Of a stretch of 64,000 nt of DNA, positions 1,578 to 1,943 are shown piece by piece (positions within the stretch are counted from its first letter, which is position 1; each line of letters starts with the position of its first letter). Source of the DNA: Escherichia coli (lineage in GTDB: Bacteria; Pseudomonadota; Gammaproteobacteria; Enterobacterales; Enterobacteriaceae). Made by a program: the position numbers and the translations under genes. The notes below the pieces were generated by a model that worked only from the letters and a program-made list of their open reading frames with translations, ran no database searches and was not told the DNA's origin. The DNA lies in assembly GCF_016026235.1 (NCBI RefSeq), contig NZ_CP065613.1; one strand, written 5' to 3'.

Positions 1578-1943
1578 GTCGACAGGGAGTCAGACAACGA
1601 AGTGAACATCAGGATGATGACACTTCTGCAGGACACACCAGGATGGTGTTTCAGGGAAAGGCTTCTGGATGAAGCGAAGAGGATGACGCAGGACGCGTTA
1701 AAGGACACCTCCAGGATGGAGAATGAGAACCGGTCAGGATGATTCGGTGGGTCAGGAAGGCTAGGGACACTTCAGGATGAAGTATCACATCGGGGTGGTG
1801 TGAGCAGGAAGCAATAGTTCAGGATGAACGATTGGCCGCAAGGCCAGAGGAAAAGTTGTCAAGGATGAGCAGGGAGCAACAAAAGTAGCTGGAATGCTGC
1901 GAAACGAACCGGGAGCGCTGTGAATACAGTGCTCCCTTTTTTT
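1578..1943 (+). ncRNA. csrB: CsrB small RNA (CsrA-sequestering), with intrinsic terminator at 1911-1943
   Basis: About 366 nt with roughly 20 CAGGA(U)G / AGGA GGA-motif repeats on the + strand, starting near GTCGACAGGGAGTCAGACAACGAAG and ending in hairpin GGGAGCGCTGTGAATACAGTGCTCCC plus T7 run; sits between syd and yqcC as in E. coli. Confidence 0.9.

Follow-up and report, generated by a model that had tools for sequence, protein, structure and literature searches.

The 64,000-nt stretch of Escherichia coli DNA analyzed here (contig NZ_CP065613.1; in the following, "the window") raises the question whether the segment at 1578-1943 harbors an intact csrB gene, as the original prediction had claimed from the letters alone, and what the position of this gene tells about the arrangement of the chromosome around it.

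A full-length csrB gene between syd and yqcC

The Rfam CsrB covariance model, which had been named as the appropriate check of the prediction, was run against the 64-kb window and matched at 1587-1946 on the plus strand (RF00018; 378.5 bits compared to a gathering score of 71, E 4.7e-110). The match is untruncated, spans model positions 1-356 of 356, and is the top one of the 4 matches to Rfam families above gathering score in the whole window. Furthermore, a comparison with the curated K-12 ncRNA b4408 (NC_000913.3, 2,924,156-2,924,524, minus strand, 369 nt) resulted in a gapless alignment over window positions 1578-1946, with 368 of 369 positions being identical (99.7%) and 1 mismatch. Thus, with the full model matched and no indels relative to K-12, csrB is intact, and its length of 369 nt equals that of the K-12 gene. 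On the plus strand, it begins with GTCGACAGGGAGTCAG and ends with GGGAGCGCTGTGAATACAGTGCTCCCTTTTTTTATT. Of the limits originally given, the start at 1578 coincides with the annotated first base, whereas the end at 1943 falls on the final T of the terminator T-run and the K-12 annotation extends 3 nt further, to 1946. All sequence-level defining features of RF00018 were tested and are present, and on this basis the region belongs to the family. Taken together, the covariance match, the identity to b4408, and the z-score of the predicted fold (see below) place a full-length, 369-nt small RNA gene at 1578..1946 (+), which is almost certainly the chromosomal csrB of this E. coli strain, giving rise to a non-coding RNA that would act as a CsrA sponge.

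Upstream, csrB is flanked by syd (822..1367, +) and downstream by yqcC (1989..2318, +; 109 aa), both of which were assigned from their ORFs and from the annotation in E. coli genomes, in the case of syd the annotation under the match. The gene order is syd-csrB-yqcC-truC-yqcA-gudP, followed by gudX, gudD, and barA, and synteny is kept from syd to gudP. The barA gene (8287..11043, −), 6.3 kb downstream of csrB, is intact with an ORF of 918 aa and colinear with K-12 barA, the K-12 coding sequence of 2,757 bp likewise encoding 918 aa. BarA is the sensor kinase that phosphorylates UvrY, which in turn switches on csrB transcription (PMC4682653).

Among 5,426 complete E. coli genomes, 5,425 carry the csrB locus between syd and yqcC, in most cases once and with 95-100% identity. 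No 369-nt csrB identical to the one described here was identified among complete E. coli genomes, with the best match reaching 99.7%. A csrB match is missing from a single genome of the 5,426; a few others contain two copies, one copy lies on a plasmid, and at least 1 genome (FDAARGOS_1292) matches only 64% of csrB. In the genomes with a match, the automatic RefSeq annotation has no feature beneath it, and the gene name appears only in the curated K-12 record. This csrB is an ordinary gene and already known biology, and the label of "known biology" that the original prediction had attached to it is apt. For the biology of csrB itself, the identification is of little significance, this being a textbook regulatory RNA in essentially every E. 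coli genome.

GGA motifs, predicted fold, and terminator

The original prediction had spoken of about 20 GGA-motif repeats; the exact number is 22 GGA triplets on the plus (RNA) strand, compared to 2 on the minus strand, which agrees with the published count of 22 for E. coli CsrB (PMC7652899). These putative CsrA binding sites span 1586..1914 (+). Across the window, 4.55 ± 2.58 GGA were found per 369 nt on average, while dinucleotide-preserving shuffles of the csrB region, which is purine-rich, contain 14.7 ± 2.6. After csrB, the window is densest in GGA at 40973-41341 (+; 16 per 369 nt), within the coding sequence of an IS4 transposase, where clustering of AGGATG is absent. In view of the shuffles and the IS4 stretch, the bare number of GGA triplets is only moderately specific, and GGA counting alone can mislead. 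The argument therefore relies on the covariance model together with the extended motif. Within csrB, CAGGATG occurs 6 times compared to 0.09 occurrences expected from shuffles, and AGGATG occurs 8 times compared to 0.34. Moreover, the 369 nt of csrB contain 8 of the 18 AGGATG motifs and 9 of the 32 CAGGA[T/A/C]G motifs on the plus strand of the 64-kb window. Such an enrichment greatly exceeds chance and is decisive.

The predicted fold of csrB RNA has an energy of −118.7 kcal/mol, compared to −99.1 ± 4.7 kcal/mol for shuffled sequences (z = −4.15), and the RNA is predicted to form a succession of short hairpins and single-stranded linkers, on which the 22 GGA are presented. According to the Rfam consensus, half of these (11 of 22; 1612, 1641, 1667, 1691, 1714, 1737, 1755, 1775, 1807, 1863, and 1891) are located in hairpin loops, 9 are found at unpaired linker or 5′-end positions, and 2 (1718 and 1912) lie inside stems; 1 of the 9 consensus-unpaired triplets, at 1822, is placed in a hairpin loop by the energy-based fold. 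For 19 of the 22 GGA, the mean unpaired probability in the thermodynamic ensemble exceeds 0.5.

The terminator, which had been described as clearly visible, was recovered by a terminator scan and corresponds to the terminal helix of the Rfam consensus. It is an intrinsic terminator (1911..1943, +) comprising an 11-bp stem (1911-1936) in which 7 of the pairs are G-C, a 4-nt loop, and T7. Immediately 5′ of it, the 10-nt segment GAAACGAACC (1901..1910, +) is unpaired in the Rfam consensus as well as in the minimum-energy fold, and it does not differ from the K-12 sequence. A role in RNase E- and CsrD-dependent decay has been described for the unstructured site preceding the CsrB terminator (PMC7652899); by homology, 1901-1910 would be the region where RNase E cleavage begins CsrD-dependent turnover.

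A rare base change at position 185

The sole difference between this csrB and its K-12 counterpart in the gapless alignment is C185U (window position 1762, +), and the entire 621-nt interval from the syd stop to the yqcC start is identical to K-12 save at this base. Based on the pairing in the Rfam alignment, C185U affects a short hairpin with the loop CAGGAAG, in whose stem the outer pair changes from G-C to G-U. The local hairpin is predicted to be approximately 2 kcal/mol weaker with U185 (−2.5 compared to −4.5 kcal/mol with C185), and the predicted exposure of the loop GGA is 0.91 instead of 0.96, with the remaining 21 sites being unchanged. C185U is predicted to be almost neutral and structure-preserving. 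In a search of 5,423 complete E. coli genomes with a 69-nt query centered on the base, 3 carried U185, and the notion that the variant is private to this strain was rejected; it is rare, not unique. In comparison to FDAARGOS_943 (NZ_CP065615.1), the closest complete genome found, C185U is 1 of 16 scattered differences over the surrounding 23 kb, and this is ordinary drift or divergence.

The upstream control region

The 18-nt inverted repeat TGTGAGAGATCTCTTACA, an exact match that occurs once in the window, is located at 1387..1404 (+), corresponding to −191 to −174 with its center at −182.5 from position 1578. The same repeat is covered by the UvrY~P footprint on E. coli csrB, where it was placed at −183/−182 (PMC4682653), identifying it as the UvrY~P binding site. 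An exact match to the partially conserved additional half-site TGTAGGAGA, which has been described for csrB in the same study (PMC4682653), follows 5 bp downstream of the repeat (1410..1418, +). With the UvrY site in place, csrB of this strain would be expected to depend on UvrY as it does in K-12. Between the UvrY site and the promoter, a pattern match to an IHF-like consensus was found on both strands (WATCAANNNNTTR, 1473..1488), representing a putative IHF site; a putative IHF site has been placed between two UvrY crosslinking regions in the literature, in a paper that gives no coordinates for comparison (PMC4682653).

The core promoter region (1522..1577, +; −56 to −1) was assigned by identity to K-12, and a crosslinking region from −56 to +25 has been reported at csrB (PMC4682653). 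A consensus promoter scan did not detect a sigma-70 site at threshold upstream of csrB. However, the DNA is that of the experimentally mapped K-12 promoter, and the negative scan is, therefore, not counted against a promoter at this position. Given that the interval to syd is identical to K-12, the mapped promoter is present here as well. The best hexamers, picked by eye, are likely TTGTAA (1543-1548) and GATTCT (1566-1571), separated by a 17-nt spacer, and their weakness is attributed to the promoter being activator-dependent.

An IS4 junction and a likely inversion

It had been claimed that the first part of the window is reversed relative to K-12, and this was borne out by mapping: window positions 1-39371 correspond to K-12 2,926,101 down to 2,887,311, i.e., to the region of queF, syd, and csrB through cysH and sokX, which is reversed and contains IS-related gaps. 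The remainder, from 41730 to 64000, maps to K-12 3,033,622 up to 3,056,913 (lysS through ssrS and sibC) in forward orientation. As a consequence, csrB and 6S RNA are encoded on the same strand here at a distance of 61 kb, while they lie on opposite strands in K-12 (approximately 131 kb apart) and in FDAARGOS_943 (approximately 127 kb apart). The value of csrB in this window is that of a map anchor, which, in combination with 6S RNA at the far end, reveals the rearrangement junction between them.

The junction (39372-41729) consists, in this order, of hok/sok, a truncated ISEc60, a complete IS4, and the idi/lysS intergenic site. Mapping showed that the ISEc60 copy is represented by its first 763 bp (39541-40303) and is cut by IS4, while the IS4 element (40304-41729) is complete, as indicated by its terminal inverted repeats as well as by Pfam matches (Nterm_IS4 and DDE domains). 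Strain GCUET01 also has an IS4 at this idi/lysS site, with a copy of the 12-bp duplication CGACATTTGCCG on either side. For the IS4 in the window, by contrast, CGACATTTGCCG is found only on the lysS side, and the opposite flank is formed by the interior of ISEc60. Since an IS4 with mismatched flanks points to recombination between two IS4 copies and the orientation changes across it, the simplest reading, which we infer from the sequence as the likely one, is an inversion of approximately 146 kb (K-12 approximately 2.887-3.034 Mb) by two-IS4 recombination. The inversion is absent from FDAARGOS_943, the closest genome. We also considered that the inversion could have occurred via the two inverted ISEc60 copies present in FDAARGOS_943, and this route was rejected, as ISEc60 is cut at bp 763 by IS4 and IS4 joins the idi/lysS site directly. 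The junction possibly represents an assembly error instead of an inversion; the reciprocal junction lies outside the window. The inversion leaves csrB and its whole control region untouched. If read as an inversion, the junction would be a clean example of an IS-mediated inversion that the nearest sequenced relative lacks, and it bears on how other findings in this window are read.

Additional features of the window

A chromosomal hok/sok type I toxin-antitoxin locus was identified at 39228-39521, based on an Rfam sok match (39228-39384; 106.7 bits) and an intact Hok ORF of 50 aa (39369-39521) with a Pfam HOK_GEF domain. At the corresponding place in K-12, only sokX is annotated, adjoining cas3, and cas genes were not found beyond hok/sok in the window. 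A short type I-E CRISPR array with approximately 4 repeats (GAGTTCCCCGCGCCAGCGGGGATAAACCG) is located at 24271-24523, adjoining queE, and an ISEc60 copy (24520-25816) borders it directly. The 64-kb window shows no cas genes. The CRISPR spacers are not the same as in FDAARGOS_943 (96.8% identity, 12 gaps).

Furthermore, the window carries a dense IS load, with three ISEc60 copies or fragments and one IS1 at 24520-25816 (+), 28480-29248, 31578-32883 (−), and 39541-40303. Several K-12 genes between queE and queD are missing or disrupted, and FDAARGOS_943 is similar, albeit not identical, in this respect. In gudX (5355-6644), one base is deleted from a C-run at approximately 6537-6539 (GCGCCCGG to GCGCCGG) in comparison with both K-12 and FDAARGOS_943. 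The resulting frameshift leaves an ORF of 429 aa compared to 446 aa, with an altered C-terminal tail; gudX may be a true pseudogene, or the homopolymer may have been misread in sequencing. The ygfF gene is lacking from its K-12 position between bglA and gcvP, with approximately 95 nt (53115-53210) replacing about 1 kb, and it is likewise unannotated there in FDAARGOS_943. Finally, Rfam matches were obtained for full-length 6S RNA (ssrS; 63070-63253, +; 139.8 bits) and for a SIB antitoxin RNA that is clipped by the window end (63902-64000, +; 76.4 bits), both on the same strand as in K-12.

Proposed function and alternative readings

The near-identity to the K-12 RNA (99.7%) suggests that this csrB RNA binds and sequesters CsrA. 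CsrB was described to bind approximately 18 CsrA subunits and to antagonize CsrA in vivo (Liu et al. 1997, as cited in PMC7652899), and each CsrB molecule of this strain would similarly engage many CsrA subunits at its GGA sites, about 18 if the number from the original work applies. CsrA would thereby be kept off its mRNA targets, relieving CsrA control of carbon metabolism, biofilm formation, and motility. Transcription of csrB would be driven by UvrY~P bound to the 18-nt repeat and aided by IHF, with BarA, encoded by the intact gene nearby, presumably phosphorylating UvrY. CsrB decay is governed by CsrD, EIIA-Glc, RNase E, and PNPase (PMC7652899, PMC4682653). In this strain, RNase E would be expected to cut the unpaired segment before the terminator once CsrD and unphosphorylated EIIA-Glc overcome protection by CsrA. 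The genes csrA, uvrY, and csrD lie outside the window, and their presence in this strain is assumed.

The gene could be csrB by descent and nevertheless be functionally impaired, either because C185U damages a CsrA site or because the inversion alters expression through replication orientation or a changed neighborhood. This would be in line with the rarity of U185, with the predicted loss of stability of the affected hairpin, and with the segment being inverted relative to K-12 as well as to FDAARGOS_943. However, the base pair is kept as G-U, the loop GGA remains exposed, and the affected site is 1 of 22 redundant ones. Moreover, the promoter, UvrY site, and terminator are those of K-12, the closest inversion breakpoint is approximately 37 kb away, and the base change is among the scattered differences from the nearest strain that amount to ordinary drift. 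We consider an impaired csrB to be very unlikely. It is also very unlikely that the CsrB output of the strain is off the norm, with U185 weakening one CsrA hairpin or the approximately 146-kb inversion changing dosage or expression. If this were the case, the set-point of the Csr system would be shifted in an IS-rich lineage, with the inversion flipping csrB, barA, relA, eno, and pyrG relative to the direction of replication.

That the RNA is another sponge of the Csr/Rsm clan, i.e., CsrC or an RNA of the RsmB/Y/Z type, has hardly any probability left. While GGA-loop hairpins and an upstream site of the UvrY/GacA type are common to all of these RNAs, which constitute one Rfam clan (CL00106), the best of the overlapping clan matches (cmscan) is CsrB at full length, and the identity to K-12 csrB is accompanied by the csrB-specific syd/yqcC context. 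Furthermore, the sequence of the upstream repeat is that of csrB, TGTGAGAGATCTCTTACA, and not that of csrC, TGTGAGACATTGCCGATA; identity as CsrC was, therefore, rejected on the grounds of the locus, the csrB-type repeat, and the top clan match. The probability that the region is protein-coding, or that the GGA clustering results from chance or composition, is smaller still and close to nil. Four mechanical ORFs of 45-71 aa overlap csrB on both strands, and the IS4 transposase gene also reaches a GGA density of 16 per 369 nt. However, the extended motif is strand-specific and more than 20-fold enriched over shuffles, and the covariance model match has an E value of 4.7e-110. No Pfam family match was obtained for any of the 4 ORFs overlapping csrB, which by itself is weak negative evidence; in combination with the CsrB covariance match, it led us to reject a protein-coding reading. 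No result of the analysis speaks against an intact csrB encoding a CsrA sponge, which is the almost certain reading.

Comparison with known systems

The csrB of K-12 MG1655 shares with the gene described here its length of 369 nt, the syd and yqcC neighbors, the promoter region, the UvrY repeat at −183/−182, the terminator, and the 22 GGA; it differs in having C at position 185, and the segment is inverted here with respect to the lysS-ssrS side of the chromosome. FDAARGOS_943, with its 16 differences over the surrounding 23 kb, resembles the window in its ISEc60 and IS1 load nearby, whereas it carries C185, has a K-12-like arrangement, and lacks an IS4 at the idi/lysS site. More distant are the clan CL00106 members CsrC and RsmB/RsmY/RsmZ, which differ from the csrB of the window in length, locus, and sequence. 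For csrC, the repeat is less symmetric and IHF is not needed (PMC4682653). Nevertheless, these RNAs likewise titrate CsrA or RsmA through GGA hairpin loops, and they are likewise activated by a regulator of the UvrY/GacA type from an upstream inverted repeat (PMC4682653, PMC7652899).
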